From: a virus
Length of the DNA stretch: 64,000 nt
IMG/VR virus record: IMGVR_UViG_3300032893_002193
Span: 1 to 64,000 of that record
Reading direction: 5' to 3' (one strand)
Numbering within the stretch: the first letter of the stretch is position 1; the number at the start of each line of letters is the position of its first letter. The notes below the pieces were generated by a model. The model was not told where the DNA came from, ran no database searches, and saw only the letters and a program-made list of their open reading frames with translations. Of this stretch, positions 1 through 16,013 are shown piece by piece. The position numbers and the translations under genes are program-made.

Positions 1-2
1 TT

Positions 3-3000
3 GCAAGTAATCTTCCAAGCGGAACCGTTATCAACTCTTCAAACATTTCTCCTGCTGGTATACCAGGAATTACAGGTCCTACTGGTCCTCAAGGTCCTCA
101 AGGATCTCAGGGTTCACCAGGAGTTACGGGTCCTACAGGTCCCCAAGGTCCTCAAGGGTCTCAGGGTTCTCCTGGAGTTACTGGTCCTACAGGACCTCAG
201 GGAAATCAAGGTCCACAGGGATCTCCCGGAGTTACGGGTCCTACAGGTCCCCAAGGTCCTCAAGGGTCTCAGGGTTCTCCTGGAGTTACTGGTCCTACAG
301 GTCCTCAAGGTCCCCAGGGATCTCAGGGTTCACCGGGCGTTACAGGACCTACGGGCCCTCAAGGTCCTCAAGGACCTACCGGATCACAGGGTCCACAGGG
401 TTCTCCTGGAGTTACTGGGCCACAAGGACCTCCTGGTAGTGGTGGCGGCGCCGGAGTAACTCTTGCCTCTCAATCAACTCCTGGTATCATCTACCTTCCC
501 GCAGGAGATTTATCTGGTACGGGATCAAATGCATCTGGTCCAACCATTAGCAAAATAACCGGTGATAGTTCTGGAAGAGTGGGAATTGCAACTGGAATAT
601 GGTTCTATATAAATGGTGATGGAAATACCTTGCAACTTGCTGCCCCACTTTCATCTGCAACTGGAATAACTTCAACATTAAATGGTAAACTTGCAATAAA
701 TGTGAATGGAATTCCAACATCAACAAGATATCCGCAGGATGTACTTGCCGTTGTTGCTTCCGCTATGGATTTCCAGCAAATATTTATACAAAACTCAAGC
801 AATGCGACTACTGCCTCATCAGATATAGTTGCAACAAATGATATTGGAACTAATAATTCTTATTATGTTGATCTTGGTATTAATTCTTCAAAATATGGAA
901 TTTCTGGAGGAGTTGGTGGTCCAAATGATTCTTATTTATATTCTTCTAATAATAGGGTTCTTATAGGAACAATTGAAAGTACTCCAACTGGAGTAATTAG
1001 TTTCTTTACGCAATCTGGTGTCGCAGAGCAAGTTAGAATATTTAATGATGGAGGAGTAGCAGTTGGCGGTTCATTTATATTTTCGCCAGGAAGTGATAAT
1101 CTCTTTGTTCAAAATGCAATCGGTATAGGTGCAACTGGATCGTCGGGAATTATGTGGCAAACGGTTCAGTCTGGAACCAATAATTTTACTTTGCAGTGGC
1201 CAGGAGCACTTCCCGCGGCTTCTGGATATGCTTTATTGTCAGATGGTGTTGGTAGACTATATTGGGCTCAGGGAGGAGTTGGTGCAACCGGTCCTACTGG
1301 TCCACAGGGTCCGCAGGGTCCGCCAGGTGGTGGCGGCGGTGGAGGTGGTGTTACCTTAGCGTCGCAGTCAACTCCAGGTGTTATTTATTTACCCGCAGGA
1401 GACTTATCTGGAACCGGATCAAATGCTACTGGTCCAACTATAAGTAGATTAAGTGGAGATCCGTCTGGCAACATTCAAGTACCATCCAATGTTTCATTTG
1501 CAATTGCCGTATCAAACGGTGCCTCTACCGCTCCAACAGGATTATTTAGATTCCCCAGAGCAGGACAAGTTCAAGCTCCGATTATGGGCGCAATTGGTGT
1601 ATCAGGACCATATGTATTTATGCAATATGGAATAGATCCTCTTACCAATTTAGATGAGGTTAAATTTGGAACATCTGACGCTTTAGTTGGCAATGATAAG
1701 GTTAGTTTAAATGCACAAAGTAAGGTGTCATTTAGAATTAATGGAATTTCGCAAATATCTGAACCTGTTAGAGTTGCAGCAGAAATAGGGAGAGACCCGA
1801 CAACTCAGGGTCCATATTTGGGCATATATGGTCCATCTGGAGCCACAGGAATGATGGCTTTTAGAGTTCAATCTGGAGTTGCGTCATATACATTACAATG
1901 GCCGAGATCGTTGGCTGCTGCGTCTGGCTATGCTTTAAGTTCTGATGCCACTGGAATACTTTCATGGGTTCCAAATACGGCTCCACTTGCAACGTCTACT
2001 CTTCCCGGCTTAGTATATATTCCGGCAGGAGACCTTCAGGGTACAGGTTCAAGCGCCACCGGACCAACTATAAGTAAATTAAGCGGAGATGCAAGCGGGG
2101 CAATTAGAGTTCCATCATCGGCGTTTTTATATTTTGGCGGAGCTGTTCAATCCGCAGCACCAACCGGTCTAATTAGACTTCCGGCGTCCTCTAATAATAT
2201 GGTTCCAATTATTCAAAAAACACCAGTTGGAGCACTCGGGCAAAATATACTTTCATATGGAATGGACGCAGTTACTACCCTAGATACTGTAAATATTGGA
2301 GATGGTAGTTATTCTCAAATTAAATTGTTATCTTCTCAAGTAATTTATTTCTTTATTAATGGATATGGTAACGTAGCTCAAATAAGCGGTCCCGGAACTC
2401 CTGCGTTAGGAATGCTCGCCCCATATATTTATTTTGACGGAACTATAATTCCTGGTGGGCCGGTCATTCGAGTAACCGCTGATAACGGAGACTTTGCCGC
2501 TGTAGATTTTCAAATTGGTGCACAACCACCGTATTCTTCCGCTACTGTTAATAAATCTTCAGGTAATTTAAATCTTGCTGTAGCTATGCCGATTAAAGAT
2601 GGTAAGTATGGCGGAATTAACTTCATAGCCGGAGCTTCTGGAGGCTATACATTAATTGGACAGTTTGGCAGAGTTGCTCAAACTGGTATACCATATCTTG
2701 GTTTAGCTGGTCCGGCAACTGCAACCGGTATGATGACATTCCAGGTAGCATCTGGTGTGGCATCGTATGCTTTAATTTGGCCAAGAGCACTAGGAGCTTC
2801 AGGCAATCAATTATCTACCGATGGTTCTGGAAATCTTTCATGGTCAGCCGGTATTGCCGGTCCAACAGGCCCAACTGGTCCTCAGGGTCCTGCCGGCGCA
2901 AACGGTGTAAGCACTATTTGGCTACAAAATAACGGCGCAACATTGGCCCCAGTAAATACCGTTAACCTTTTGGGAGGTTTGGTTGGAACTACAGGAGCAG

Positions 3001-3503
3001 TTCCAGGAATTGTTAATATAAACTCTCTCAATGATTTTGCTATCCTTGGATTTACGGGTTCCAATTTAGCAACTGGAAACAATGCATCTGGTGCCATGGT
3101 ACGATGGACCAGTGAAATTATCACTCCAACAGGAGGCGCTATTGGACATACTACCATTGGAACTGCTGCGGCTTGGGTTACTGTTCAAAAAGCTGGCTGG
3201 TATGAAATAGATTATTCAATAGGATTTACTGGAGTTTCGGTTCCGCTGTTGTTAGTCCAGTGTTTTCTTGGAGCAACCGGAGGAAACGGTAGATTTGGAT
3301 TTGGATCAGGATCTCCAATTACTCAATCTGTTTCATATGGTATCGGTGGTTCGGGATTTGCTTCTCAAAGCTTCTTGGCTTATATACCATCTGGCAGCAG
3401 CATAGAAACATATGTATCACCATTTTCTCCGGCTGTGTATGGATTAAGCGGAATTTGCTTTAGCCCAACCGGTTCTAAATTCTCTATTAGAACAAGAGGA
3501 TAA
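3..3503 (+). CDS. Collagen-like modular fibre protein with C-terminal BclA-C/C1q(TNF)-like domain; 5'-truncated by the window edge
   Basis: Frame 3 is open from base 3 ([39 protein letters not shown]...) and is in frame with the tracked ORF 579..3503, so the GTG at 579 is internal. It has 42 consecutive Gly-X-Y triplets at 57-434 and shorter collagen runs near 1281-1325 and 2850-2900. The C-terminus has a jelly-roll-type signature ([17 protein letters not shown] ... [18 protein letters not shown]). Confidence 0.85.
57..434 (+). repeat. Coding tandem repeat, 7 x 54 bp (18 aa, consensus [18 protein letters not shown])
   Basis: 378 bp of degenerate 54-bp units with mostly third-position variation; encodes a collagen triple-helix region. 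Confidence 0.9.
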
Positions 3504-3534
3504 TAATTATTTAAAAAATTAATTTACTTTTCAT

Positions 3535-3545
3535 TTGATATATTT
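3535..3545 (+). promoter_or_regulatory. Recurrent intergenic motif B (TTGATATAT) upstream of the glycosylation cassette
   Basis: TTGATATATTT lies 28 nt before ATG 3563 and is followed by an AGGAG RBS at 3551. Similar motifs occur at 9776, 47133 and 62469. Confidence 0.45.
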
Positions 3546-3562
3546 CATTTAGGAGTAAGTTA

Positions 3563-6103
3563 ATGAAAGTATCTGCTTGTATTATAGCCAAAAATGAACC
3601 CCTTCTTGAGCAGTGTTTAAAATCAATTAAAGGATATGTTGACGAAATAGTTGTCGTGGATACCGGTTCCACTGATAATACTCCTGAAATAGCCAAAAAA
3701 TATGCTGATGTTTTTGAAGTATATACTGGATGTAATGATCCGAAAACAGGGCTAATTAATGATTTTTCGGACGCAAGAAAAAGATCATTTGATATTGCCA
3801 CTAATAAGGCCGTTATTTGGTTAGACGCCGATGATATTCTTGTTGGTGCAGAAAACATAAAAAAAATATTAGATGAATATGAAAAAACAACCTCTACTTT
3901 TGATGCGGTTGGTTTTATTTTTCCATATGAGTATTCCTATGATCAGGATGGAAATTGCACCTGCCGACACTATAGAGAAAGATTGTTTACTGATAAGAAT
4001 AAGTTTCGGTGGACAAACCCCGTACATGAGGTAGCGGTACCAATTGAAAGTTATAATATTAGTCTTATTCAAAAAGATGATGTAATATACAAACATCACA
4101 GACAATATAGTTCAAAACATATGGAGTCCGGCCGTAATCTTCGTATATTAAAAAAATATTTCGAAAAAGTAGGAGAATCAGACGCAAGACAGATGTATTA
4201 TCTCGGTCTTGAGTATGTGAATAATGGATTAGTTGATGAGTCAATTAAATGTTTAAGTAGATATATAGAAATTTCCGGCTGGGAAGATGAAAGAGTAATG
4301 GCATGTCTTAAATTAGTAGATATTTATCATGCATTAGTTCAATATGAAAAAGCTCTTGAATGGGGATTTAAGGCAATAGAAATAAAAGAAAACTGGGGAG
4401 AAGGATATTTTGCTTTAGCCAAGACTTTTTATTTTATGGCTATGCGAGGAGATGCAAATCAAACAAGATATTGGCAAAAGTGTGCTCATTATGCTAAAAT
4501 TGGTCTTGACCTTCCTCCAACACAAACTATGTTATTTATTAATCCGCTTGAAAGAGAAGCCGAGATACATAAATACTATAATGTTGCCTTAAGTAAATTA
4601 GGAGATATTAAGGGGGCATTAGAAAGCGTAAATATCGGAATTAGAAAACAGCCAAAAGATCCTCATTTAACCAATAATAAAAAAGTATATGAGATTTTTT
4701 TGGCCAAACATGATATAACCGTAGGCGTCAATAAATTAAATGAATATGGTGGAATAGATAAGATTACCACAGATAATATCATTTCTTTAATTAATAATCA
4801 AAAAATATCTATAGAAAATAATATAGAAAAAATTAGCATAAAAGAACCGGAAGATATAAAGATAAATATCTGGGAAATAGCGTCTGAATATGAAAAAGAA
4901 GGGTTTAAGTTAATAGATTGTCATTTATTAAAAAATAAATATGTAGTTTCTAATTTATTGCAAGAAGATAAGAATAGTCTTCTGAATATTGTCTTTTTTA
5001 TAGGAGATGGTGTTGAGGAGTGGACGCCAGAAACAGTTAAGTACACCGGTATAGGTGGCAGCGAGTTAATGGCTATTAATATATCAAAGAGATTAGCTAA
5101 ATTGGGCCATAATGTTTCAATATATTCTGGCTGCGGAGAAGCCGGCGAAGGAATATATGATGGCGTTAGATATTATAAAACAGAAAAATATCATGATTTA
5201 AGCTGTGATGTTTTAATTGTATCCAGAAGAGCAGATGCGTTAGATGATAAATACAATATAAAATCTAAAATAAAACTATTATGGGTTCACGATGTATTTG
5301 CCATTAATGCTACAAACGATCTCTTAGCAAAGGCAGATCGTATTTTAGCGCTGTCAGAGTGGCATAAAGATAATTTAGTTAACTATCATAATATTCATCC
5401 TAACAAAATTATTAAGACAAGAAACGGAATAGATTTAAAAAGATTTAATAAGAAAATAGAAAGAAATCGATTTAAGTGTATAAATAGCAGCAGCCCGGAT
5501 CGTTCTTGGCCAGTTTTACTACAAGCTTGGCCGGAAATAAAAAAACATGTTCCACAGGCAGAGCTTCATCTATATTATGGATTTAAAAACTGGAAATATT
5601 CGGCTCAGTTTAATCCCGGTCATAATGATTTGATTAATAAACTGGAAGAAATGATTGTCAATATGAAGGATCTTGGCGTTGTATTTCATGACAGAATTAG
5701 TCAGGATAAATTGTCGGACGAGATGCTTGGATCTGGAGCGTGGTTATACCCGAGTTGGTTCTGGGAAACATCATGTATATCTGCAATGGAAGCACAAGCA
5801 GCGGGATTAAGAATGATTACTTCTAATAGAGGGGCATTAACCGAAACTGTTGGATATAGAGGTACTTTAATTGATGGAGAGTGGACATCGCCAGAATATA
5901 TTAGTGTTTTTATTGGTAAAACAATAGAGGCTCTTACTAAAGAAGATCAGGATGATAGAATAGTGCTACAAAAATATGCTCAAGATCATTTTGATTTAGA
6001 TGATTTAGCAAATGAATGGAATGATATGCTTTATGAATTAATAGAGACAATTAAAATCAATCCAATTTGTCCTTATTATCCAACTGCCTCTTATAGAAAG
6101 TAA
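3563..6103 (+). CDS. Multidomain glycosyltransferase: GT2 (GT-A) + TPR repeats + GT4 (GT-B)
   Basis: N-terminal VSACIIAKNE, VVVDTGSTDNT, DFSDARKRS, WLDADD and PVHE motifs match SunS/SgtA-type GT2. A helical TPR-like middle follows (YYLGLEY, EKALEWGFKA, YFALAK). The C-terminal GT-B part has GGSE, NGID, SSSPDR and ETSCISAMEAQAAG. AGGAG RBS. Confidence 0.9.
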   Translation: MKVSACIIAKNEPLLEQCLKSIKGYVDEIVVVDTGSTDNTPEIAKKYADVFEVYTGCNDPKTGLINDFSDARKRSFDIATNKAVIWLDADDILVGAENIKKILDEYEKTTSTFDAVGFIFPYEYSYDQDGNCTCRHYRERLFTDKNKFRWTNPVHEVAVPIESYNISLIQKDDVIYKHHRQYSSKHMESGRNLRILKKYFEKVGESDARQMYYLGLEYVNNGLVDESIKCLSRYIEISGWEDERVMACLKLVDIYHALVQYEKALEWGFKAIEIKENWGEGYFALAKTFYFMAMRGDANQTRYWQKCAHYAKIGLDLPPTQTMLFINPLEREAEIHKYYNVALSKLGDIKGALESVNIGIRKQPKDPHLTNNKKVYEIFLAKHDITVGVNKLNEYGGIDKITTDNIISLINNQKISIENNIEKISIKEPEDIKINIWEIASEYEKEGFKLIDCHLLKNKYVVSNLLQEDKNSLLNIVFFIGDGVEEWTPETVKYTGIGGSELMAINISKRLAKLGHNVSIYSGCGEAGEGIYDGVRYYKTEKYHDLSCDVLIVSRRADALDDKYNIKSKIKLLWVHDVFAINATNDLLAKADRILALSEWHKDNLVNYHNIHPNKIIKTRNGIDLKRFNKKIERNRFKCINSSSPDRSWPVLLQAWPEIKKHVPQAELHLYYGFKNWKYSAQFNPGHNDLINKLEEMIVNMKDLGVVFHDRISQDKLSDEMLGSGAWLYPSWFWETSCISAMEAQAAGLRMITSNRGALTETVGYRGTLIDGEWTSPEYISVFIGKTIEALTKEDQDDRIVLQKYAQDHFDLDDLANEWNDMLYELIETIKINPICPYYPTASYRK

Positions 6104-6107
6104 AAAT

Positions 6108-6830
6108 ATGATAAAATTAAATATAGGATGTGGCCCCAATATTTTTCCATATGACGGATGGACTAATTATGATCGAGATGTTCAAAACGAATATTTTGAT
6201 TATATTAAATTAGTTGTAGATGGCATTTCTGCAAATCCTCCAAATCCATACTATATTGATGCTTTTAATCGAATGCCAAAACAGCAAAAAGATATTGTTT
6301 TATATATTAAGAGAGGTAAGAAACCAAACATTATTGTGCATAATGTTGTTAATGGTTTTCCTCAATATATAAATAATACCGTTGATTTTATTGTTGGAAA
6401 TCAGATGATAGAGCATTTTAATAAAATTTATGAAGTGCCAAAAATATTAAGCGAATGTTATAGAATTTTAAAGCCAGGAGGAATTATTAGATTATCAACT
6501 CCAGATCTTGATCTTTTATTAAACGCCTATATTAATAATGATATGGATAAATTTTCGGTAGAACAACCGGCATTCTATAAAGATGCTGATAAAGGATCTC
6601 AACTGGCATATTTAATGTTTGGAGCTTCTGGTCCCAACTGCAATAGTTCCGCATATGAAGGTCATTTCTTCATATTTAACAAAATATCTATGACGAAAAC
6701 ATTAAAAGAAATTGGTTTTAAAGATATTGAGTTTTATTATGAAACAAATAAAAGTAAGAGCAGCGTATTGTGTCAAGAAGTTGTAGATACCGGAATGACT
6801 CATAGTTTTATTGTAGAGGGAGTGAAATAG
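6108..6830 (+). CDS. Class I SAM-dependent methyltransferase (Methyltransf_11-like)
   Basis: KLNIGCG motif I, QMIEHF, and ECYRILKPGGIIRLSTPD. Confidence 0.85.
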   Translation: MIKLNIGCGPNIFPYDGWTNYDRDVQNEYFDYIKLVVDGISANPPNPYYIDAFNRMPKQQKDIVLYIKRGKKPNIIVHNVVNGFPQYINNTVDFIVGNQMIEHFNKIYEVPKILSECYRILKPGGIIRLSTPDLDLLLNAYINNDMDKFSVEQPAFYKDADKGSQLAYLMFGASGPNCNSSAYEGHFFIFNKISMTKTLKEIGFKDIEFYYETNKSKSSVLCQEVVDTGMTHSFIVEGVK

Positions 6831-6850
6831 GTAATGTACGGGGGCATCAA

Positions 6851-7960
6851 TTGAAAATAGGTATAATAACAACAAATTCTTTTCCTATTCCATATAAGAC
6901 TCATACTGGAGATATTGTTATTTTAGATCTCGCCTTATCTTTACACGATCTTGGCCACGAAATAACCTTATATGCTCCTGAAGGTAGTGTTTGTTATGAT
7001 AAAAAGATTAATGTAATTCCAACTCCTTGCTCATATGGCAGATATAATGAACATTCTCGTTTAGAAGAAAAAAAGTTTTTTGAAGAAAATAAAGATCATT
7101 TATTTTCAAATGACATAATGCATGACTTTAGTGAATCAAAAATGATATCGCACTATTTATATAATTCTGGATATCAAAACATTTTATTTACTCTTATGGG
7201 TGGCGCCTGGACAAAAGTATGGTCTCCTTATAATCCAGTTGCATGGTCGCAATCTCATAGGGATAGAATATTAAGAGGGGCCTCTGATTATGAGAATACT
7301 TTGATGCCAGAAGTTGCTAACCAGCCCTATTTAAAAGTTAAAGAGACTCATGTTGTTTCTGGCGGCATAGATACTAATTTTTATACACCAACATACGATA
7401 AGAAAAATTTTTTTTTATGGATGAATAGGTGGCATCCTGCAAAAGGATATAGAGAGGCCATAAAATTAGCACAAAAAACAGGAATAGAATTAATCATGGC
7501 TGGAGAATATCCAGAAAATGAGACATTTGCATCACAGAGAGATAATGCTATAGAAGCTGTTAAGTTGGCAAAAAATTGTAAAAATATTAAGTTTCATTGG
7601 CTGCCGAAAGATCCGTATCATCATATTACAAAAAGAGAGCTGTATAGACAGGCAAAGGCGCTTCTATATACTGTTCAATTTAATGAGCCCTTTGGATTAT
7701 CACAGGTTGAATCATTATCGTGTGGAACTCCTGTCATAGGAGTTAATTATGGATCTGTTCCTGAGATTATTAAGGACGGAGAGGTCGGATTCGTCAGAAA
7801 CAATGATATAAATCAATTAGCAACATCAATAGATCTGATAGAAAATATTAATCCAGAAAGATGTAGACAAGAAGCAATTGATAAATACGACAGAAGTGTA
7901 ATGGCAAAATCTTATATAAGAGAATATAATTTTATATTAAATAATCAAGGATGGACATGA
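6851..7960 (+). CDS. GT4 family glycosyltransferase (AviGT4-like)
   Basis: GHEITLYAP, GGID, RWHPAKG and EPFGLSQVESLSCGTPVIG...GSVPEII motifs. TTG start preceded by GGGGG. Confidence 0.9.
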   Translation: MKIGIITTNSFPIPYKTHTGDIVILDLALSLHDLGHEITLYAPEGSVCYDKKINVIPTPCSYGRYNEHSRLEEKKFFEENKDHLFSNDIMHDFSESKMISHYLYNSGYQNILFTLMGGAWTKVWSPYNPVAWSQSHRDRILRGASDYENTLMPEVANQPYLKVKETHVVSGGIDTNFYTPTYDKKNFFLWMNRWHPAKGYREAIKLAQKTGIELIMAGEYPENETFASQRDNAIEAVKLAKNCKNIKFHWLPKDPYHHITKRELYRQAKALLYTVQFNEPFGLSQVESLSCGTPVIGVNYGSVPEIIKDGEVGFVRNNDINQLATSIDLIENINPERCRQEAIDKYDRSVMAKSYIREYNFILNNQGWT

Positions 7961-8604
7961 CTAAAGAATATGTTTTTAAAAATAATAAATTTACAATATC
8001 TCAAGGAGGAGTTCATCCCGGATATTCATATTTTACATTTGAAGAAGAAGAGGTAGAATTTAGAAATAAATACTGGAATGTTAAAAATGATGATGTTGTT
8101 TTTGATATAGGGGCGTCGTATGGATCATATTCTTTAACTGCTTGTGCTATGGGTGCTCGGGTCTATTCTTTTGAACCAGAAACCTCTGTCTATGTTGATT
8201 TAGTTAATAATATCAAAATTAATAATTGGGAAAATAGATGTAGTGCATTTAATATTGGTTTGTGGGATAAATTAGAGCAAATAGACATGAGAACATATGC
8301 TCCACATTGGCCTGCTCACACAATAGCCGACAAATTTAATATGACAACATTAGATTTTTTCATTAAAAATTATTCAATAGATAAAATTGATTGGATGAAA
8401 ATAGATGTTGAAGGCGCCGAGGTCAATGTTGTTAAGGGAGGAATAGAAACAATTGAAAAATATAAGCCCAACATTATCATAGAGTGTCATAATTTTTTGG
8501 ATTTTAATATTAAAAACAAAATAAGGTCTTTGCTTGATTCGATATATTTGTTTGAAGAAGTTGATAGAGATCCGTGCACTATGTTGGTTGGAATTAAAAA
8601 ATAA
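7957..8604 (+). CDS. FkbM-family methyltransferase
   Basis: VVFDIGASYGSYS, VYSFEP and WMKIDVEGAE motifs. Start placed at the ATGA overlap with the upstream stop (the track gives 7951). Confidence 0.9.
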   Translation: MTKEYVFKNNKFTISQGGVHPGYSYFTFEEEEVEFRNKYWNVKNDDVVFDIGASYGSYSLTACAMGARVYSFEPETSVYVDLVNNIKINNWENRCSAFNIGLWDKLEQIDMRTYAPHWPAHTIADKFNMTTLDFFIKNYSIDKIDWMKIDVEGAEVNVVKGGIETIEKYKPNIIIECHNFLDFNIKNKIRSLLDSIYLFEEVDRDPCTMLVGIKK

Positions 8605-8612
8605 AGGAAAAA

Positions 8613-9761
8613 ATGAAAATTGCCGTTATATTAAGTCATTTAAGTGTCGGACAGAGACCTCTTGATTTTTGGTATGATAATATATATAAATCTTCTCGCG
8701 GATTAACTGGAACCGATTACTCTGCTGTTCAGATTTCAAAAGAATTAGTTGAAAGAGGGCATGATGTTCATTTATTTACCGTTCACGCTCAACCAAATAA
8801 TAAGCCAGACGAATGGATGGGCGTAAAGCTATATAATTGTGATGATAGATTTGCTGGCATAAATGATAGTTTTGATGTCATTTTATCTATTAATGATCCT
8901 AATGTATTTTTTAATTTAACAGAAAAACCCCTCAGAATATGTTGGGAATTTTTGAACGATTTTCCTTTTGCTCGGCCAGGGTTCGATGATAAGGTAGATA
9001 TGTGGCTTGCCGTATGTGAGCAGCATCGAGATTATTTATTTACCCAGATGCCAGAAGAAAAATACACAAAGCAAGAAAAGTGGCAGATATTAAATCTTGG
9101 CTGTGATCCTGATTGGTATGAAGATCGAAGAGTAAAAGGAAGAATTATTTGGGCAAGCTCACCGGATCGTGGTCTACATAATTTATTAGAAATTTTTCCA
9201 AGCATTAAAGAGGCAGTTCCAGAGGCTCATTTAAAGGTTTTCTATCATTTTGATTACGATCATATTAAAGATATTGATCCATATGGTCCCAATAATCACC
9301 CTCATGTGGCAGAAATGGCAAATAGAATTAAATATTGTAGATATGCATTGGAAAAATTGAAGCCTCTCGGTGTAGAGCATGTAGGTTCTGTTAGCCAATA
9401 TCAAATGAGACAAGAATTTAGCGAAGCGTCGGTATTAGCTTTTCCGACAGATACGATCGCTTTTTCTGAAGGATTTAGCGTTACGACATTGCAGGCCCAC
9501 GCGGGATATTGCGTTCCTGTAATTACAAATCAAGATTGTCTCGGCTCTATTTATAAAAATTCTGGAGCAGTAATTATAGATGCTCCTGTAAGAAAAAATT
9601 TAAAACAATATACCAATGCAGTTATCAGGGCTCTTACTGACCAGGAATTTGCGGACAATACCATACAAAAATGTAGAAAATTTGCAATTAAACATTCTTG
9701 GAAAAAAATTGCAGAACAAATGGAGGAGATTATTTTAAAATCTCCAAAAGTTAAAAAATAA
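8613..9761 (+). CDS. GT4-like (GT-B) glycosyltransferase, paralogous to the C-terminal half of 3563..6103
   Basis: GHDVHLF, WASSPDRGL, IKEAVPEAHLKVFY and EGFSVTTLQAHAG; shares SSPDR and VPxAxL motifs with the fusion GT. Confidence 0.85.
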   Translation: MKIAVILSHLSVGQRPLDFWYDNIYKSSRGLTGTDYSAVQISKELVERGHDVHLFTVHAQPNNKPDEWMGVKLYNCDDRFAGINDSFDVILSINDPNVFFNLTEKPLRICWEFLNDFPFARPGFDDKVDMWLAVCEQHRDYLFTQMPEEKYTKQEKWQILNLGCDPDWYEDRRVKGRIIWASSPDRGLHNLLEIFPSIKEAVPEAHLKVFYHFDYDHIKDIDPYGPNNHPHVAEMANRIKYCRYALEKLKPLGVEHVGSVSQYQMRQEFSEASVLAFPTDTIAFSEGFSVTTLQAHAGYCVPVITNQDCLGSIYKNSGAVIIDAPVRKNLKQYTNAVIRALTDQEFADNTIQKCRKFAIKHSWKKIAEQMEEIILKSPKVKK

Positions 9762-9775
9762 TTCAACAATTGATT

Positions 9776-9787
9776 TCGATATATATA
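9776..9787 (+). promoter_or_regulatory. Recurrent intergenic motif B (TCGATATATATA) upstream of the NDP-sugar genes
   Basis: Lies in the 50-bp gap before ATG 9812 and matches the motif at 3535, 47133 and 62469. Confidence 0.45.
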
Positions 9788-9811
9788 ATGAAAGTATTTG
9801 AAAGGTAAGTT

Positions 9812-10219
9812 ATGGATAATAAAAAATATGTAGATTTGGTTAACGATGGTCAGTTTCCAGAAAATATAAAAGTTCCAATAGACCTTCCGTATAAAGATGA
9901 GCGGGGCATTATTAAGAATTTATGGCTTGGTCATTCGGGCAGCGTCACATTAATTGAGAGTGTAAAAGGATCGGTAAGAGCTAAACATAGACATCTTAAT
10001 GGAGATTGGCACGCAACATATATTATCAATGGAAAAGTTGAGTATGTAGAAGGCGAAGGAGATAGGCAGACTAAAACTATTTTCAATACCGGAGATTTAT
10101 TTTTTACTAAGCCCGAAGTATATCACGAAATGCATTTTATTCAGGATACAAAAATGATTACAATGAATGGAATAGTAAAAAATCATACAAATTACGAAAA
10201 ATCAATTAAAAGAGGATAA
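9812..10219 (+). CDS. RmlC-like cupin (NDP-keto-sugar isomerase/epimerase candidate)
   Basis: DERG, RAKHRH, and GDLFFTKPEVYHEMHF cupin motifs; abuts the C-methyltransferase gene. Confidence 0.75.
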   Translation: MDNKKYVDLVNDGQFPENIKVPIDLPYKDERGIIKNLWLGHSGSVTLIESVKGSVRAKHRHLNGDWHATYIINGKVEYVEGEGDRQTKTIFNTGDLFFTKPEVYHEMHFIQDTKMITMNGIVKNHTNYEKSIKRG

Positions 10220-11479
10220 ATGCAAGATTTAATCAAAAGAAGAGAAGATTGTAGATTGTGTCATGGTCGCAATCTAAAATTAGTTCTAAAACTTGAAAAA
10301 TCTGCTCTTGCTAACGATTTTGTCTCAAACCCATTAGTCGTTCAGCAATCATTTCCTTTAGATTTATTTAGATGTGAGAGTTGCGGTAATTATCAAATTT
10401 TAGACATAATAGATCCGTCAATAATGTTTAGCAATTATAATTATGCAAGTTCTACCTCTAAATTGATGAGACAACATTTTAGAAATTATGTATGCGCTTT
10501 GGCCTCTGAATTTGATTTGTCCGAAGAGCATTTAGTTTGTGAAATAGCCTCTAATGATGGAGTTATGCTTCGATGGTTTAAGTGCCTTGGTATAGATGCC
10601 TTTGGAGTGGATCCTGCATCTAATTTAGCTCAAAAAGCAAATGATGAGGGATTAGAAACAATTAATGATTTCTTTAATACAAAAACCGCATCTGCAATAT
10701 TATCTACAAAAGGAAATGTAGATCTTGTTGTGGCTAATAATGTGTTTGCTCATGCTGATGATTTAGATGAAATTGTCAATGGAGTGAAAATTATCTTAAA
10801 AAAGGAAGGTTTTTTTGTTTTCGAAGTATCTTATTTTATGGATGTTTTAGAAAGCGGAGATTTTTCACAAATATATCACGAACATTTGCAATATTGGTTG
10901 GTTGGTCCGATGTATTCTTATTTTAAGAAGCACGGAATGACATTATATGATGTAAAACCGGTAGATGTCCACGGCGGATCTATTAGATGTTTTGTTTATA
11001 ATGGCATCTCAAATGATGTTTGTGATAGTGTTTCATATTATGCTGCAAAAGAAAGTAAAAACGGTTGCTATACAGATGAGTCCTGGTCTAAAGTTTCTAA
11101 ATTTGTGAAAAAGGTTAACGGAATAAAAGAAAATTTAAGACCAAAATTATTAGAGTTAAAGAGACAGGGAATGAAAATCGCCGGAGTAACAGCATCGGCA
11201 AAATCAACCACATTATTGCATCATTGTAATATAGGAAGTGATATTTTAGATTGTATTTATGATGATGCTCCAGAAAAAATCAATAAATATTCTCCTGGAA
11301 AACACATTCCAGTATTACCTTTTAGCAGAATGTATCAAGATAAGCCTGATTATTTAGTGACGCTATCTTTTAATTTTGTTGATTTTATTATTAACAAGCA
11401 TAAGGAATATCAGGGTAAATGGATCATACCTATTAATAAGAGCGATGAAATAATTGAATATTCTGGGGAAAATAAATGA
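10220..11479 (+). CDS. NDP-hexose C-methyltransferase (EryBIII/TylCIII/NovU-type)
   Basis: N-terminal zinc site CRLC...CESC, EIASNDG, ANNVFAH, IYHEH, HGGSIR, and C-terminal KINKYSPGKHIPV / DYLVTLSFNF. Confidence 0.9.
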   Translation: MQDLIKRREDCRLCHGRNLKLVLKLEKSALANDFVSNPLVVQQSFPLDLFRCESCGNYQILDIIDPSIMFSNYNYASSTSKLMRQHFRNYVCALASEFDLSEEHLVCEIASNDGVMLRWFKCLGIDAFGVDPASNLAQKANDEGLETINDFFNTKTASAILSTKGNVDLVVANNVFAHADDLDEIVNGVKIILKKEGFFVFEVSYFMDVLESGDFSQIYHEHLQYWLVGPMYSYFKKHGMTLYDVKPVDVHGGSIRCFVYNGISNDVCDSVSYYAAKESKNGCYTDESWSKVSKFVKKVNGIKENLRPKLLELKRQGMKIAGVTASAKSTTLLHHCNIGSDILDCIYDDAPEKINKYSPGKHIPVLPFSRMYQDKPDYLVTLSFNFVDFIINKHKEYQGKWIIPINKSDEIIEYSGENK

Positions 11480-12438
11480 AAAAAATATTGGTGACCGGAA
11501 CTGCCGGTTTTATTTTATCTAATTTTATGAGAATGGTAGAGAGGGATAATGCTTCTTATAAATTTGTCAGCATAGATAAAGTCATCGCTCCATATAATAG
11601 ATATAATGTTGAGTTAAATAGAAAATCTCATAATTTTTATATGGGAGATATTGCAGATGAAAAATTTATTGACAATATTTTTGCTATAGAAAGGCCGGAT
11701 ATTGTTATTCATGGAGCGGCTGAAAGTTTTGTTGATGATAGTATTAAAAGCGCCGGACCATTCATACACTCTAATGTTGTTGGAACTCAGGTTATGGTGG
11801 ATGCGGCGGTTAAATATGGCGTAGAAAGATTTGTTTATATTTCTACCGATGAGGTATACGGCCAATTAAAGTCTGGTGAAAAATCCTGGACTGAAGAGAG
11901 TTTGGTGAACCCGAGAAACCCATATAGTGCCTCTAAAGCTGCCGGAGAGTTAATTGTTAAAGCAGCCAATCAAACTCACGGTCTAAAATATAATATTACC
12001 CGATGCTGCAATAACTATGGTCCAAGCCAGCCTCCCAGAAATTTGGTTCCCAGAATTATTTATAGTGCTATCAATAACAAAAGCATTGGAATTCACGGAA
12101 ATGGTTTAAATATGAGGGAGTGGATCTGTGCCGAAGATCATTGCCGAGCTATTATGCATATTGTTGAAAATCTTCCTGTTAATGAAATATATAATATTGG
12201 AACTGGTATAGAATTAAGTAATTTAGATATGCTTAAATATATATCTAAAGTTTTAAACAAAAAAATAGAGCATCATTTTGTTAAAGATAGGGCCGGACAC
12301 GATTTTAGATATAGTGTTGATGTCAGTAAAATTGCTAAAACAGGATGGAAACCACGATTTTCATTTGAAGGCGGAATGAAAAAATGTGTTGATTGGTATG
12401 TTGAAAACTCTTGGTATTTTAAAAATTTTGACAAATGA
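11476..12438 (+). CDS. rfbB: dTDP-glucose 4,6-dehydratase (extended SDR)
   Basis: VTGTAGFI, HGAAESFVDDSI, ISTDEVYG, NPYSASKA, NNYGP, REWI and DRAGHDFRYS motifs. Confidence 0.9.
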   Translation: MKKILVTGTAGFILSNFMRMVERDNASYKFVSIDKVIAPYNRYNVELNRKSHNFYMGDIADEKFIDNIFAIERPDIVIHGAAESFVDDSIKSAGPFIHSNVVGTQVMVDAAVKYGVERFVYISTDEVYGQLKSGEKSWTEESLVNPRNPYSASKAAGELIVKAANQTHGLKYNITRCCNNYGPSQPPRNLVPRIIYSAINNKSIGIHGNGLNMREWICAEDHCRAIMHIVENLPVNEIYNIGTGIELSNLDMLKYISKVLNKKIEHHFVKDRAGHDFRYSVDVSKIAKTGWKPRFSFEGGMKKCVDWYVENSWYFKNFDK

Positions 12439-13262
12439 ACAATATTAATCTTGGAATAATTGGTTTAGGTAATTGGGGAAAAGTTTATCTTCCTAAATTA
12501 CGATCTCTTGGCGTTAATTTTTTTGTAGCACAGAATAATTTAGATACACTGATAGAAAAAAAGATTATTAATGGGCTTATTATTTCAACTCCACCGTCTT
12601 CACATATTCAAATTGCTAAGTATGCTTTAGATAATAATATTCCAGTGATGATAGAGAAGCCGCTTGCACTATCTCACAAAGAAGTAGAACAATTACAAGA
12701 TTATAATACACCAATTCTTGTTAACAATATACATTTGTTTTCTAATCCATATCAATATATTAAAAACAATATAGATTATAGTGGTATTAAAGGCATTCAG
12801 TTTATTAATGGAAACAATGGACCGGTTAGAAATTACTCCCCGTTGTATGATTATGGGTCGCACGATTTTGCTATGTTAATTGATTTGCTTGGAAGTGATT
12901 TAACTTATTTATATGGATTGGTTAATAAAAAAGAAAATAAAGAGCAATATCAAATTTCTTATTCTCATCATAAAATTGTTTGTAATTTGCACATAGGAAA
13001 TTGTTTTATGAAAAAACAAAGAATGTTAAAAATTATTACAAACGATGATGTATGGGAATATGATGATACAATTCAGAATAAATTAAAATTAAATTATGAA
13101 AATATTGAATATGATAAAACAGATCATCTTACAAATGCAATTAAGGTTTTTTTAAATTTAATTGAAGGAAAAGAAGATAAGAGATCTGGAATAAAATTAT
13201 CATTAGATGTTTTAAAATATTTAGATTATATTAGTAATAAATTAACTTTATCTTATTTTTAG
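12435..13262 (+). CDS. Gfo/Idh/MocA-family oxidoreductase (candidate NDP-keto-sugar reductase)
   Basis: GIIGLGNWG, STPPSSH, VMIEKPLA and DYGSHD motifs; ATGA overlap with rfbB. Confidence 0.85.
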   Translation: MNNINLGIIGLGNWGKVYLPKLRSLGVNFFVAQNNLDTLIEKKIINGLIISTPPSSHIQIAKYALDNNIPVMIEKPLALSHKEVEQLQDYNTPILVNNIHLFSNPYQYIKNNIDYSGIKGIQFINGNNGPVRNYSPLYDYGSHDFAMLIDLLGSDLTYLYGLVNKKENKEQYQISYSHHKIVCNLHIGNCFMKKQRMLKIITNDDVWEYDDTIQNKLKLNYENIEYDKTDHLTNAIKVFLNLIEGKEDKRSGIKLSLDVLKYLDYISNKLTLSYF

Positions 13263-13269
13263 GTTTAGA

Positions 13270-14127
13270 ATGAAAGCATTATGTTTATCTGGCGGTTCTG
13301 CAAAAGGCGCATTTCAGACCGGTGCAATTTTATATTTGCTTGGAAAAAAGAAAATAAAATATGATATTATGGCCGGAGTTTCTGTTGGAGCAATTAATGC
13401 TGCGGCCATTGGAATGTTTCCTGACGGCAAAGAATTAGAAGCGGCTGAATATTTAAGAGATATGTGGATTTCTATTGATGCCTCAAAAATTTATAAACGA
13501 TGGTGGCCGTTCGGTAGATGGCATGGATTATGGAAGGCCAGTTTATTCGATAGTTCTCCTCTTCATCATTTGGTTAAATCTAATATTGATATTGGTAGAA
13601 TTAGATCCTCTGGTAAAAAAGTATATTGTGGAACAGTTAATCTAACAACTGGAAAGTATACTGTTTTTAATAGTGAGCAAAATGATTTCGTTGATGCCGT
13701 AATAGCCAGTGCAAGTTTTCCTGGATTATTTACCCCTGTTCAGATAGGCGATCACTTATATACCGATGGAGGATCTAAAGAGATAAGTCCTATTTCGATT
13801 GCCATTAATCAGGGGTGTACAGAAATAGATTTGGTTATGACCTCTCCAGAAGTAAGAATTAAGAAATTTATCAATAATCCTAAAACAGTAGATGTGATAA
13901 ATAGAAGCTTCGATTTGTCTACTGAAAAAATAATGAGCAATGATTTAGAAAAAGCCATAATGTATAATAAATTGGCATCTACCGGGTTAACTGATAAAAA
14001 AGAAATCAAAATCAATGTAATTAGGCCATCTTTTAATCTTTTGGAGGATTTGCTTGACTTTGATCCTGAAAAAATTAGAAAAATGATGGAAATTGGTTAT
14101 CAAGAAGCAAAAAATAGATATGGGTAG
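13270..14127 (+). CDS. Patatin-like phospholipase
   Basis: LSGGSAKG oxyanion loop, GVSVG nucleophile elbow, ASASFPGLF and the catalytic DGG motif. Confidence 0.9.
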   Translation: MKALCLSGGSAKGAFQTGAILYLLGKKKIKYDIMAGVSVGAINAAAIGMFPDGKELEAAEYLRDMWISIDASKIYKRWWPFGRWHGLWKASLFDSSPLHHLVKSNIDIGRIRSSGKKVYCGTVNLTTGKYTVFNSEQNDFVDAVIASASFPGLFTPVQIGDHLYTDGGSKEISPISIAINQGCTEIDLVMTSPEVRIKKFINNPKTVDVINRSFDLSTEKIMSNDLEKAIMYNKLASTGLTDKKEIKINVIRPSFNLLEDLLDFDPEKIRKMMEIGYQEAKNRYG

Positions 14128-14199
14128 ACTAAATGCATAGAGATAAAAATAAGAGAGGCCTATAATATCAATATTGTTGGATATTATAAGGAGTAATAT

Positions 14200-14550
14200 A
14201 TGGTTAGCTACCCATTTAAAATAACAAAAACCCAAGGCAGAGACTATAATTTTTTTCAAAAAGTTACCGTCACATGGAATCAATTTGGAGGCGGAGCCAC
14301 TGATGGATATTCTCCTGACTGCATAATTACTCTTCCGTCTTCTTTTTCTTCATTATGGCTAATTAATGAAACTGGCTCGACAGTTGTAGAGGTTTCATAT
14401 AATGGGTATACAGTTCATGATGAGCTTAATCCAACCATATTGCCGCAAGGAGCACAATATCTCAATAGACCGGGCTGCTCTTTGATATGGTTGCGTCTAA
14501 AAACAGGCGCTTCGGCCACTGTTAGTATTCGTGCTTGGGGAGTAAGATAG
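14200..14550 (+). CDS. Small beta-rich hypothetical protein (possible virion decoration protein)
   Basis: 116 aa with an AAGGAG RBS and beta-strand patterning; contains one DGY. Confidence 0.7.
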   Translation: MVSYPFKITKTQGRDYNFFQKVTVTWNQFGGGATDGYSPDCIITLPSSFSSLWLINETGSTVVEVSYNGYTVHDELNPTILPQGAQYLNRPGCSLIWLRLKTGASATVSIRAWGVR

Positions 14551-14567
14551 TAAGAAAGGTAAGAATT

Positions 14568-14822
14568 ATGAGAAAAGAAAGAGGAAAGCAAATATTTTCA
14601 GAAAAAGAAACAAGACAACATCTAATTGATCTTGGTAAATTGCATGGCTTCGAAGGAGAAGTGAAGCAGATTTTTGATAAATATGATAGATTATTAAGAA
14701 ATTGCACCAACCAAATAGAAAAACAGGCAATTGCGATGGAGGGTGTTATTGCCGTTCATAACCTTCTTGGTGGATATAGCGATTTAGAAATTAATGGTAT
14801 TAAGATAAGAGGAAAGGTATAA
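14568..14822 (+). CDS. Hypothetical protein (84 aa)
   Basis: ATG at 14568 with an AAAGG RBS, in frame with the tracked 14535 ORF; TAATG overlap with the next gene. Confidence 0.65.
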
Positions 14823-15049
14823 TGTCAACGGTATATACTGGTAAGGTTATTTGGTTTAAAAATAAAAAGGGAATGGGCTTCATTGCTTGGGAAAAAGACG
14901 GTGTAGCTCAAACCGATATGTTTGTTCATTTTAGTGATATCCAAATGAATGGCTATAAAACATTATCCAAAGATGATGTGGTAGAATTTGAAATCGGACA
15001 AAATATTAAAGGTCAACCAAAAGCAATTAATGTTAAGGTTGTAAAATAA
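14822..15049 (+). CDS. Cold-shock domain (CSP) nucleic-acid-binding protein
   Basis: GKVIWF, KGMGFI (RNP1), DMFVHFS (RNP2), GYKTL and GQPKAINV motifs. Confidence 0.92.
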
Positions 15050-15442
15050 TTAGTGTTTTAAGAACATATTAATAACAGATATAATTGTTCCAACTCCAAC
15101 CGTTCCCAGTATAACAATTAATCTAAATATATTTTTCTCTATCTCTGATATCTTATCTTCTAGACTGGTTTTTACATGTTGTTTAAATCTTTCAAAATCT
15201 TCTATTTGAGTATCTACTGATGAATTTATGCCCTCAAGCAATTTAATTATATTTTTTTGCTGTTCATCATTTTCATTTAATTTATCAATTATATTTTCGT
15301 TTTGATTTTCATTTTTTTCTAATTTTTTAATAATTTCTTCGTTTTGCTTTTCGACTTCAATATAGATCTCTATTGATTTTTGGTTTGTCTCCAAAATAGA
15401 TTTAATTTCTGAAAGTGTTATGTTAGATTGCTTTTCGTTCAT
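15050..15442 (-). CDS. Coiled-coil protein with C-terminal transmembrane helix (holin/XhlA-like architecture)
   Basis: Heptad-rich body followed by the hydrophobic C-terminal segment LIVILGTVGVGTIISVINMFL; last gene of a three-gene minus-strand unit. Confidence 0.7.
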   Translation of the reverse strand: MNEKQSNITLSEIKSILETNQKSIEIYIEVEKQNEEIIKKLEKNENQNENIIDKLNENDEQQKNIIKLLEGINSSVDTQIEDFERFKQHVKTSLEDKISEIEKNIFRLIVILGTVGVGTIISVINMFLKH

Positions 15443-15605
15443 CGCCTTGGGTTTTTGATCTTTTGTTGCGTATTTTAGCTATTGTTTCGTTGACTTTCTG
15501 GTCTAATTCTTTATATCTTTTTATGATATTTTCGCTTTCACTATCTTCCTCTTGCAGTGGAGCTACCACTATTTCTGATATTGCTACTACTTTACCGTTT
15601 GACAT
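15423..15605 (-). CDS. Hypothetical protein (60 aa)
   Basis: Fits tightly between the two flanking minus-strand ORFs; AGGTGA precedes the start. Confidence 0.55.
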   Translation of the reverse strand: MSNGKVVAISEIVVAPLQEEDSESENIIKRYKELDQKVNETIAKIRNKRSKTQGDERKAI

Positions 15606-15608
15606 TTT

Positions 15609-15977
15609 TCACCTATTTCTATCCGCTTCTGCCAAGTCTGCATTTTCTGCGGCGTACTCTTCTTCGTTAATATTTAGTTCATCAAAGTTTGTTTTTTCAA
15701 TAATAATATCATTTTTTCTTGCGCCAATTAGCGGTAATTCATTAACTTTTTTTATAGGTCTTGCACTTTTAGGTAATTTATCATTAATAAATAAATTAGA
15801 CTTCTTTTTAAATATTGATCCAGAAGACATTGATGCATTAATTTGCTCTTCTGTTAGCCTCGAATGCTTAAAATCATAAAGATTAATGGATTTTTTAGAC
15901 GGAATAATTAAATTAAGATCATGCAGAGCAATATCTCTGTTTGAAATATTTGTAATCCATAGGTTTTTTGCTGACAT
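15609..15977 (-). CDS. Hypothetical protein (122 aa)
   Basis: First gene of the minus-strand unit, preceded by a reverse-strand TAATATT motif 24 nt upstream; acidic C-terminus. Confidence 0.7.
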   Translation of the reverse strand: MSAKNLWITNISNRDIALHDLNLIIPSKKSINLYDFKHSRLTEEQINASMSSGSIFKKKSNLFINDKLPKSARPIKKVNELPLIGARKNDIIIEKTNFDELNINEEEYAAENADLAEADRNR

Positions 15978-15994
15978 CTTAATATAAATATAAT

Positions 15995-16013
15995 AATATT
16001 AATATTTCTGCAT
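15995..16013. promoter_or_regulatory. Divergent regulatory site: 12-bp palindrome AATATTAATATT providing motif A on both strands
   Basis: Plus strand reads TAATATTTCTGCAT at 16000 (29 nt to ATG 16029). Minus strand reads TAATATTATTATAT from 16001 (24 nt to ATG 15977). Confidence 0.55.

Follow-up and report, generated by a model that had tools for sequence, protein, structure and literature searches.

A collagen-like fibre gene adjoins a sugar-modification cassette in an uncultured jumbo phage: a candidate phage-encoded protein O-glycosylation system

Introduction

Do some large phages attach sugars of their own making to their own fibres? The question is raised by the viral contig IMGVR_UViG_3300032893_002193, whose first 64,000 bases (the window; coordinates refer to it unless another sequence is named) open with a gene for a collagen-like fibre protein, followed at once by nine genes for glycosyltransferases (GTs), methyltransferases and sugar-nucleotide enzymes. 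A first-pass annotation of this DNA had proposed that the phage builds its own methylated oligosaccharide on collagen whiskers. We followed this proposal up computationally, and it is partly supported. From the sequence, we think it rather likelier than otherwise that the locus encodes a protein O-glycosylation system, whose main substrate would most likely be the adjacent collagen-like virion fibre. A role as a coat or nap, in shielding, in adhesion or in mimicry is speculative.

At 80,057 bp, with an estimated completeness of 19%, this viral contig is a fragment of an uncultured jumbo/mega myophage. Its relatives lie on viral contigs of 120-473 kb, of which the largest, G001 (472,749 bp), is rated 100% complete. 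This DNA is found in wetland metagenomes, and no RNA dataset was listed as holding the stretch.

Results

The fibre gene (3-3503, plus strand) is cut at its 5' end by the contig end, leaving 1166 residues. The protein matches the collagen family PF01391 (8.8e-15) and tail-fibre families of PHROGs, such as phrog_5073 (3.6e-42). The Thr-rich collagen with GVT and GPT repeats that had been noticed earlier was confirmed in the translation: the main collagen run of the window (57-434; 42 Gly-X-Y triplets by regular-expression count) has an 18-residue repeat unit. Three paralogous non-collagen modules of about 210-290 residues each follow (456-2849). They were recognised by the positions of a start motif, PGxxYxPAGDL (residues 160, 458 and 668), and an end motif, WP(G/R)(A/S)L (residues 399, 633 and 926), and a short collagen/Gly run lies inside the module region (1281-1325). 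The phrog_5073 match reaches into the first module; a Pfam search of the three matched no family, and an Atlas search with an internal module returned weak viral leads, all below threshold. A last collagen run of seven triplets and a small beta linker domain (2850-3011) lead to the C-terminal head. In the full-length protein, copies of this linker also follow the N-terminal collagen runs.

A near-identical full-length form, P0002 (1714 residues), is encoded on a contig of 158.7 kb. It holds seven collagen runs with 528 residues in sum, or 176 Gly-X-Y triplets, separated by small beta domains of about 42 residues, one 74-residue spacer and the three large modules. The commonest triplets are GPQ (43), GPT (29), GSP (24), GVT (23) and GSQ (19). 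Gly-X-Thr accounts for 54 of the 176 triplets (31%), and a further 43 are GSP or GSQ. With a collagen triple-helix rise of about 0.29 nm per residue, the fibre would carry some 150 nm of triple helix in five segments. The window collagen (3-700) differs from P0002 by a 99-residue repeat block, and the contig end falls inside the repeats, so that the assembly leaves the repeat copy number uncertain. The difference would fit either a break or collapse of the assembly within the repeats or real copy-number variation.

We examined the C-terminal head (3012-3500; 163 residues) by structure prediction. An AlphaFold2 model from an alignment of 28 sequences reached a predicted local distance difference test score (pLDDT) of 79.6 and a predicted template modelling score of 0.77; a model from five sequences (pLDDT 52) was unusable. 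Foldseek returned 335 PDB matches to the better model at E<=1e-3, and all the matches listed are jelly rolls of the TNF/C1q type. In VIA-align the top match is the C-terminal domain of F-BclA (9h38; Z 16.4, root-mean-square deviation 2.0, 130 residues), followed by BclA (3twi, Z 15.8; 1wck, Z 15.6, 19% identity). Across BclA and F-BclA the deviation is 2.0-2.4 over 130-131 residues at 16-19% identity. APRIL, EDA, BAFF and C1q align with Z of 14-15, and the same fold was found in phage receptor-binding heads, namely those of cyanophages A4 and A-1(L), PRD1 P5, TM4 gp23 and lactococcal phage 1358. Searches of PDB sequences with the head, as a single sequence or as a family profile, found nothing, and the Pfam C1q model did not match it. 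Thus, the first-pass assignment of residues encoded at 3030-3503 to a BclA-C/C1q domain stands for the fold; membership of that family at the sequence level is not established. The head belongs to a rare family, for which a search of 1.84 billion proteins yielded 33 representatives at E<=1e-3. The matches are nearly all C-terminal, with collagen upstream in several of those examined.

The cassette begins 59 bp after the fibre gene. This gap (3504-3562) contains an AGGAG ribosome-binding site and no terminator-like hairpin, and scans for sigma-70 promoters and terminators gave background levels. Nine co-oriented genes, abutting or overlapping, occupy 3563-13262 on the plus strand. We assigned the enzymes by Pfam, NCBIfam and PDB searches, which bore out the reading frames as well as the four GT domains, three methyltransferases and nucleoside diphosphate (NDP)-sugar enzymes that had been claimed for them. 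The first gene (3563-6103) encodes an 846-residue fusion of a GT2 domain, tetratricopeptide repeats (TPRs) and a GT4 domain, and matches phrog_13126 (1.8e-42). Next come a class-I S-adenosylmethionine-dependent methyltransferase, probably a sugar O-methyltransferase (6108-6830; Pfam match, 48-50% identity in relatives), a GT4 enzyme of GT-B fold (6851-7960; PF00534, 3.4e-21) and an FkbM-family methyltransferase (7951-8604; PF05050, 2.7e-20; TIGR01444, 88 bits, above the cut-off). The fifth product (8613-9761) is a GT4-like glycosyltransferase paralogous to the fusion's C-terminal half, with a weak PF00534 match and 47-56% identity in relatives; it also matches the GT4 half of a podovirus fusion described below.

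The other four genes predict a sugar pathway. A small cupin (9812-10219) is a putative NDP-sugar epimerase or ketoisomerase, a role suggested by its context; its Cupin_2 match (2e-5) is below the cut-off, a PDB search gave no informative solved relative, and its place beside the C-methyltransferase is conserved in relatives. The latter (10220-11479) is an NDP-hexose 3-C-methyltransferase of the TylC3/TcaB9/KijD1 type (Methyltransf_13, PF08421, 8.5e-14; Methyltransf_14, PF08484, 5e-37). Its full-length matches are the D-mycarose 3-C-methyltransferase 4rv9 (2.2e-68 over residues 10-404), TcaB9 (1e-58) and 5t64 (7e-58). The RmlB-like protein encoded at 11476-12438 matches the dTDP-glucose 4,6-dehydratase family TIGR01181 at 7e-100 (334 bits over the full length, curated cut-off 365). 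It is clearly an NDP-hexose 4,6-dehydratase, for which we infer the nucleotide specificity. The last gene (12435-13262) encodes a Gfo/Idh/MocA oxidoreductase (Pfam, NCBIfam, PDB), putatively an NDP-ketosugar reductase. Together, dehydratase, C-methyltransferase, cupin and oxidoreductase predict a 3-C-methyl-branched 6-deoxyhexose, the exact sugar being presumptive. An NTP-sugar nucleotidyltransferase is found neither in the 80-kb record nor in the complete 472.7-kb relative, and NDP-glucose would therefore be supplied by the host. In the cassette of G001, a gene with receiver and dual-specificity phosphatase domains (L004:20430-21341) stands between those for the C-methyltransferase and the dehydratase; the window lacks it.

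All nine enzymes are devoid of hydrophobic segments (maximum 19-residue Kyte-Doolittle mean <=1.37), indicating that the chemistry of the cassette is cytoplasmic. Likewise, the cassette contains no gene for a flippase, a lipid carrier (polyprenyl-phosphate transferase), a polymerase or a ligase.

The fusion enzyme points to the kind of acceptor. Its GT2 domain (PF00535, 8.7e-17) has the DxD motif in the form DADD, invariant across six homologues. The closest solved relatives of this part are GmaR (22ao, 3.4e-15), which we take to be the flagellin O-GlcNAc (N-acetylglucosamine) transferase of Listeria, and SunS (7msp, 3e-7; 7msk, 5e-5), a peptide S-glycosyltransferase; the match to the NCBIfam SunS family TIGR04195 (1.9e-8) is far under the equivalog cut-off. 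The similarity to SunS that the first-pass annotation had suggested checking was thus found, and GmaR lies closer. TPR matches fall at about residues 207-307 (TPR1 of HOP, 6e-4; CTPR3, 0.004; MamA TPR, 1e-6; a weak TPR_1, 0.0026), and the enzyme aligns end to end with a 366-residue bacterial GT2-TPR protein, L012, whose own repeats score 1.3e-12 against TPR_2. The TPR fusion and the kinship with GmaR and SunS indicate protein acceptors. We propose from these sequence relationships that the fusion may join an initiating protein O-glycosyltransferase to the next glycosyltransferase of the chain. The build of a GT-A domain followed by TPRs, as in SgtA of Clostridioides difficile, was borne out against the published description of that enzyme; the name SgtA is absent from the listed GT2-TPR homologues. 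This family exceeds 2,500 proteins at E<=1e-10, with a usual length of 360-380 residues, and in phages its members often carry a fused GT4 or methyltransferase domain.

We then asked whether fibre and cassette stay together in related phages. G001, found by searching viral contigs with the GT fusion, encodes a 2353-residue collagen with the same head (43% identity). That gene, a second collagen gene (335 residues) and a tailspike-like gene all lie upstream of its GT2-TPR-GT4 gene, after which cupin, C-methyltransferase, dehydratase, oxidoreductase and patatin genes follow in the order of the window. A search with the head only retrieved three more distinct phages (L005/L006, L007 and L008), each with a collagen of at least 2258 residues and the cassette 0.1-1.4 kb downstream. 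Furthermore, at the 13 metagenome loci found, cassette genes stand beside the head wherever the flank exceeds 1 kb. On a 96-kb contig the cassette is bracketed by a giant collagen upstream and a 301-residue protein of collagen plus head downstream. Three genomes each carry one copy of the head-bearing collagen, and in all of them it adjoins the cassette. A collagen open reading frame (ORF) lies within 6 kb in 15 of the 16 viral contigs whose GT2-TPR is at least 50% identical. The expected synteny of collagen, GT and TPR thus holds in every relative with enough flank.

The surroundings are those of virion genes. In the complete relative a cyanophage-type virion structural protein is encoded upstream, and tailspike-like and sheath genes downstream; a 425-residue ORF upstream in that genome has no phage match. 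The window contains a tail sheath gene (32689-35490) and weak matches to a tube initiator and a tape measure. The cassette had been placed just upstream of a contractile-tail region. The sheath is indeed downstream, but about 19 kb away, and a tailspike-like pectate-lyase protein and other fibre-like genes intervene.

The association is also seen in bacteria. Of the genomic loci with GT2(-TPR) relatives, 80 in number, five have a collagen-like ORF within 6 kb, and three of the five closest are among them. These three (L012, L013 and L015) adjoin GPT-rich collagen genes; L012, from a member of the Phototrophicaceae, is 30% identical over 377 residues (E 8e-61) and has the collagen gene after it. 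Likewise, at the more distant homologue L086, from Paenibacillus roseus, the gene for a GT2-TPR protein of 382 residues has a collagen gene on either side, one of which encodes a bona fide BclA_C domain (128.7 bits). These bacteria carry from one to about 20 collagen genes per genome, so that adjacency by chance would amount to at most about 3% per genome.

Discussion

The locus is best read, by analogy, as a cytoplasmic O-glycosylation system like that of SgtA and BclA3, with a glycan that would end in a methylated branched 6-deoxysugar. The basis of this reading is directly established: the gene content, the enzyme families, the fold of the head, the lack of membrane segments, the linkage in phages and its recurrence in bacteria. 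Several observations weigh against it. Two results weaken a strict specificity for collagen: heads of this fold are ordinary receptor-binding domains of phages, and the podovirus discussed below carries the same fusion within its structural module but has no collagen gene. Gly-X-Thr richness is common among prokaryotic collagens and has no discriminating power. The Pfam BclA_C match to the head (PF18573, at 3084-3236) scores 16.2 bits against a cut-off of 38 (E 4.3e-4) and covers only profile positions 6-59, and matches below the cut-off also occur in 7 of 14 control genomes. Across the lineage, synteny extends over the whole structural region, with the sheath 56% identical and about 20 kb downstream in both genomes; the linked phage relatives form one syntenic lineage, and the conserved linkage could thus be vertical inheritance alone. 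Each larger relative has an extra collagen-like gene that is distant from the cassette and lacks the TNF-like head (G001:C1:~465000-466200, 808 residues; G002:C1:~186900-187900, 706 residues). The cultured phages PaBG and Tunturi_5 have no annotated collagen beside their GT2-TPR homologues, and a collagen ORF was near only 13 of 64 distant viral homologues. We do not count this last figure as evidence, since it has no matched control and collagen fibre genes are common in phages.

The first alternative is a different acceptor. The cassette might glycosylate other virion proteins (capsid, sheath, other fibres or tailspikes) instead of, or far more than, the collagen, whose adjacency would then reflect membership of the structural block; we regard this as unlikely, though as the alternative that survives best. 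It draws on mycobacteriophages, in which, according to PMC12619734, glycans sit on capsid and tail-tube subunits. It draws also on the 42.5-kb podovirus MW202524 (Manatee Spring), in which a full-length GT2-TPR-GT4 (28% identity) directly follows the major capsid protein gene and no collagen gene is present. The GT cluster of this podovirus (L002:3147-11978) holds further GTs and two methyltransferases and encloses a 599-residue repeat protein rich in Ser, Thr, Gly and Asn (L002:8340-10136), a candidate non-collagen acceptor. Several targets are also suggested by a second glycosylation cluster in our own record (68397-73093; L009:6398-11094), 4.4-9.1 kb past the window end and right after the last large structural genes. 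It encodes a GT4, a GT2, a 328-residue protein with an N-terminal transmembrane helix, a 276-residue protein and a second dTDP-glucose 4,6-dehydratase paralogue (TIGR01181, 342 bits), and with sugar clusters at both ends the tail module is bracketed by two of them. Nevertheless, the closest bacterial homologues specifically adjoin collagen or BclA genes, and in the phages the head-bearing collagen is always the immediate neighbour and in one relative brackets the cassette.

Glycosylation of the collagen fibre must also be weighed against mere inheritance. Fibre and cassette could be neighbours by descent only, the cassette acting on a host protein or a non-structural phage protein, or making a free or small-molecule glycoconjugate, with the fibre a plain unmodified receptor-binding fibre. 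The synteny of the region throughout the lineage and the commonness of TNF-like heads as phage receptor-binding domains fit this. The solved relatives of the 3-C-methyltransferase, too, are annotated in mycarose- and tetronitrose-type deoxysugar pathways, which we take to be antibiotic pathways. We nonetheless find it improbable: the TPR-bearing GT2 is of a protein-glycosylating type, the association with collagen recurs in unrelated bacteria, and Pfam annotation revealed no aglycone-biosynthesis genes.

Slightly less probable still is that the cassette remodels the host envelope (lipopolysaccharide, capsule or teichoic acid), whether to exclude superinfection or to time lysis. O-antigen clusters typically contain GT4, GT2, Rml-type and methyltransferase genes, and PHROGs classes these GTs as 'moron, auxiliary metabolic gene and host takeover', but the nine products include no membrane-spanning protein, flippase, polymerase, ligase or polyprenyl-phosphate transferase, and the cassette sits within the structural block of a lytic-type jumbo phage. 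Hypermodification of phage DNA bases with a glycan is very improbable: phage GTs classically glucosylate hydroxymethylated bases (PMC9614988 and PMC12619734) and just 19% of this genome is visible, but no base hydroxymethylase, TET/JBP or kinase lies near the cassette, the only thymidylate-synthase-family gene of the 472.7-kb relative (at 437 kb, about 340 kb off) scores as a full-length ThyA, and the TPR fusion and its kin point to protein acceptors.

If the collagen-like fibre is the substrate, the following course is conceivable. Late in infection, the fibre protein and the nine soluble enzymes would be made in the host cytoplasm, probably from one transcript. The GT2-TPR part would bind the Gly-X-Thr/Ser repeats through its TPR domain and place the first sugar on Thr or Ser; by analogy with SgtA and GmaR this may be a beta-O-linked N-acetylhexosamine from the host pool of uridine diphosphate sugars. 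Chain extension would fall to the GT4 domain of the fusion and to the two separate GT4 enzymes. Meanwhile the RmlB-like dehydratase would convert host dTDP-glucose to dTDP-4-keto-6-deoxyglucose, from which the 3-C-methyltransferase, the cupin and the Gfo/Idh/MocA reductase would produce the 3-C-methyl-branched 6-deoxyhexose, and the two remaining methyltransferases would O-methylate the glycan. The fibre would then trimerise through its BclA-C/TNF-like head and be mounted on the virion. Among the likely benefits, glycosylated Thr in the Y position may stabilise a triple helix free of hydroxyproline and shield it from proteases, and the glycan may alter the surface shown by the particle.

How does this compare with known systems? 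In B. anthracis, the neighbours of bclA include rhamnose (rml) genes, and a methylated 6-deoxysugar forms the end of the glycan. Like Bacillus BclA and F-BclA (1wck, 3twi, 9h38; PMC12357932), the phage protein has a Gly-X-Thr-rich collagen stalk and a C-terminal jelly-roll head. Unlike BclA, it is encoded in a viral contig among virion genes, with no spore- or exosporium-targeting context, and its stalk is broken by the three large modules and several small beta domains. SgtA of C. difficile is a protein of 358 residues with GT-A and TPR parts, whose gene directly precedes bclA3; on GPT collagen peptides it attaches beta-O-GlcNAc to Thr (and Ser) (PMC7157674). The phage enzyme resembles it in having a GT-A domain followed by TPRs, in being soluble and cytoplasmic and in being encoded beside a GPT-rich collagen-like gene. 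It differs from SgtA, as described, in its fusion to GT4 and in the eight further genes, with their branched-deoxysugar pathway and methyltransferases. The gene order differs as well, with collagen first and GT after it, and the candidate substrate is a multi-segment virion fibre of 1714 residues, not a spore protein.

The same head fold (Z 12-13.6) stands at the distal end of the trimeric fibres of PRD1 P5 (1yq5/1yq8) and cyanophages A-1(L) and A4, a likeness that supports a virion role, probably in receptor binding, for the collagen protein. The shafts of those fibres are far shorter than that of this phage. We know of no glycosylation genes linked to them.

Phage-encoded glycosylation of the virion has been reported in mycobacteriophages (Freeman et al. 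2023, via PMC12619734). There, as here, phage GTs lie near structural genes, and there they act on proteins of the phage particle itself, at the C-termini of capsid and tail-tube subunits; a collagen, a TPR enzyme or a deoxysugar pathway is not described in the text consulted. Giant viruses cluster rare-sugar genes for the decoration of surface fibrils, and Mimivirus L230 hydroxylates Lys and glucosylates the hydroxylysine of collagen-like proteins (PMC9614988). Mimivirus, like this phage, encodes collagen-like protein(s), and it also encodes their glycosylating enzyme, for which we have here a candidate. Unlike L230, the phage cassette has no 2-oxoglutarate-oxygenase domain in Pfam, and Gly-X-Lys is missing from the 20 commonest triplet types; the host is bacterial, and the chemistry we propose would be of the Thr/Ser type. 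Our literature search found no paper describing glycosylated collagen fibres in phages. The locus stands out for its BclA-like head fold, the GT4 fusion and the full nine-gene cassette with a branched-deoxysugar pathway.

A bolder version of our reading can be put forward tentatively, and we hold it to be somewhat less likely true than false. A wetland and freshwater megaphage lineage, with genomes of up to 473 kb, would build very long collagen fibres decorated with a phage-made, O- and C-methylated oligosaccharide. The machinery would be a viral counterpart of the BclA/SgtA spore-nap system and the first phage-encoded collagen O-glycosylation pathway with its own branched-deoxysugar biosynthesis, and the GT2-TPR family would be a general collagen Thr-glycosyltransferase common to spores, phages and giant viruses.

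Glycosylation of the fibre, if it occurs, would give phages a second route to virion glycosylation, beyond the capsid and tail-tube case of mycobacteriophages, and one tied to collagen-like fibres, a widespread component of tail and head appendages in phages. In large phages, a glycan coat on the fibres would bear on host recognition, on the stability of the particles and on their antigenicity. The GT2-TPR(-GT4) enzyme and the Gly-X-Thr collagen would form a testable pair for the stabilisation of hydroxyproline-free prokaryotic and viral collagens. The cassette would offer a compact soluble route to a rare 3-C-methyl-6-deoxyhexose, and the fibre is a source of a rare TNF-like head family. Finally, the system ties the spore-surface biology of BclA, F-BclA and SgtA to virion architecture and prompts one to ask whether genes have passed between phages and spore formers.

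Other features of the locus

Directly 3' of the cassette, and conserved there in all relatives, is a gene for a patatin-like phospholipase (13270-14127, plus strand; PF01734, 1.1e-27) with weak similarity to the lipase CapV of the cyclic-oligonucleotide-based antiphage signalling system (50 bits, cut-off 200). It is followed by a gene for a conserved 116-residue protein (14200-14550, plus strand; 113-116 residues in relatives). In some relatives (L100:7309-8552) the stop codon of this gene is overlapped by the start of the gene for a 301-residue protein of collagen plus head, a short fibre gene missing from the window, and the 113-116-residue protein may be a partner or chaperone of that short fibre. 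A 75-residue ORF at 14822-15049 is, by eye, a candidate cold-shock protein of the CspA type.

The sequence TAATATTNNNGCAT occurs in four exact copies (16000, 18229, 21678 and 50944), all on the plus strand and just 5' of structural genes. We considered it as a late-promoter motif and rejected it: with one mismatch allowed there are 10 matches against 6.7 expected, which is no enrichment, and none lies in or before the cassette, nor elsewhere in 1-16000.

Beyond the window, the record encodes a TubZ-like tubulin, a GH25 lysozyme, a helicase and a DNA methylase. The TubZ/PhuZ-like tubulin (record 73641-75035; L009:11642-13036) matches PF00091 (2e-14) and a TubZ-like C-terminal domain (8e-7), and the GH25 lysozyme gene follows it. 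Tubulins of this type also occur in nucleus-forming or spindle-forming jumbo phages.

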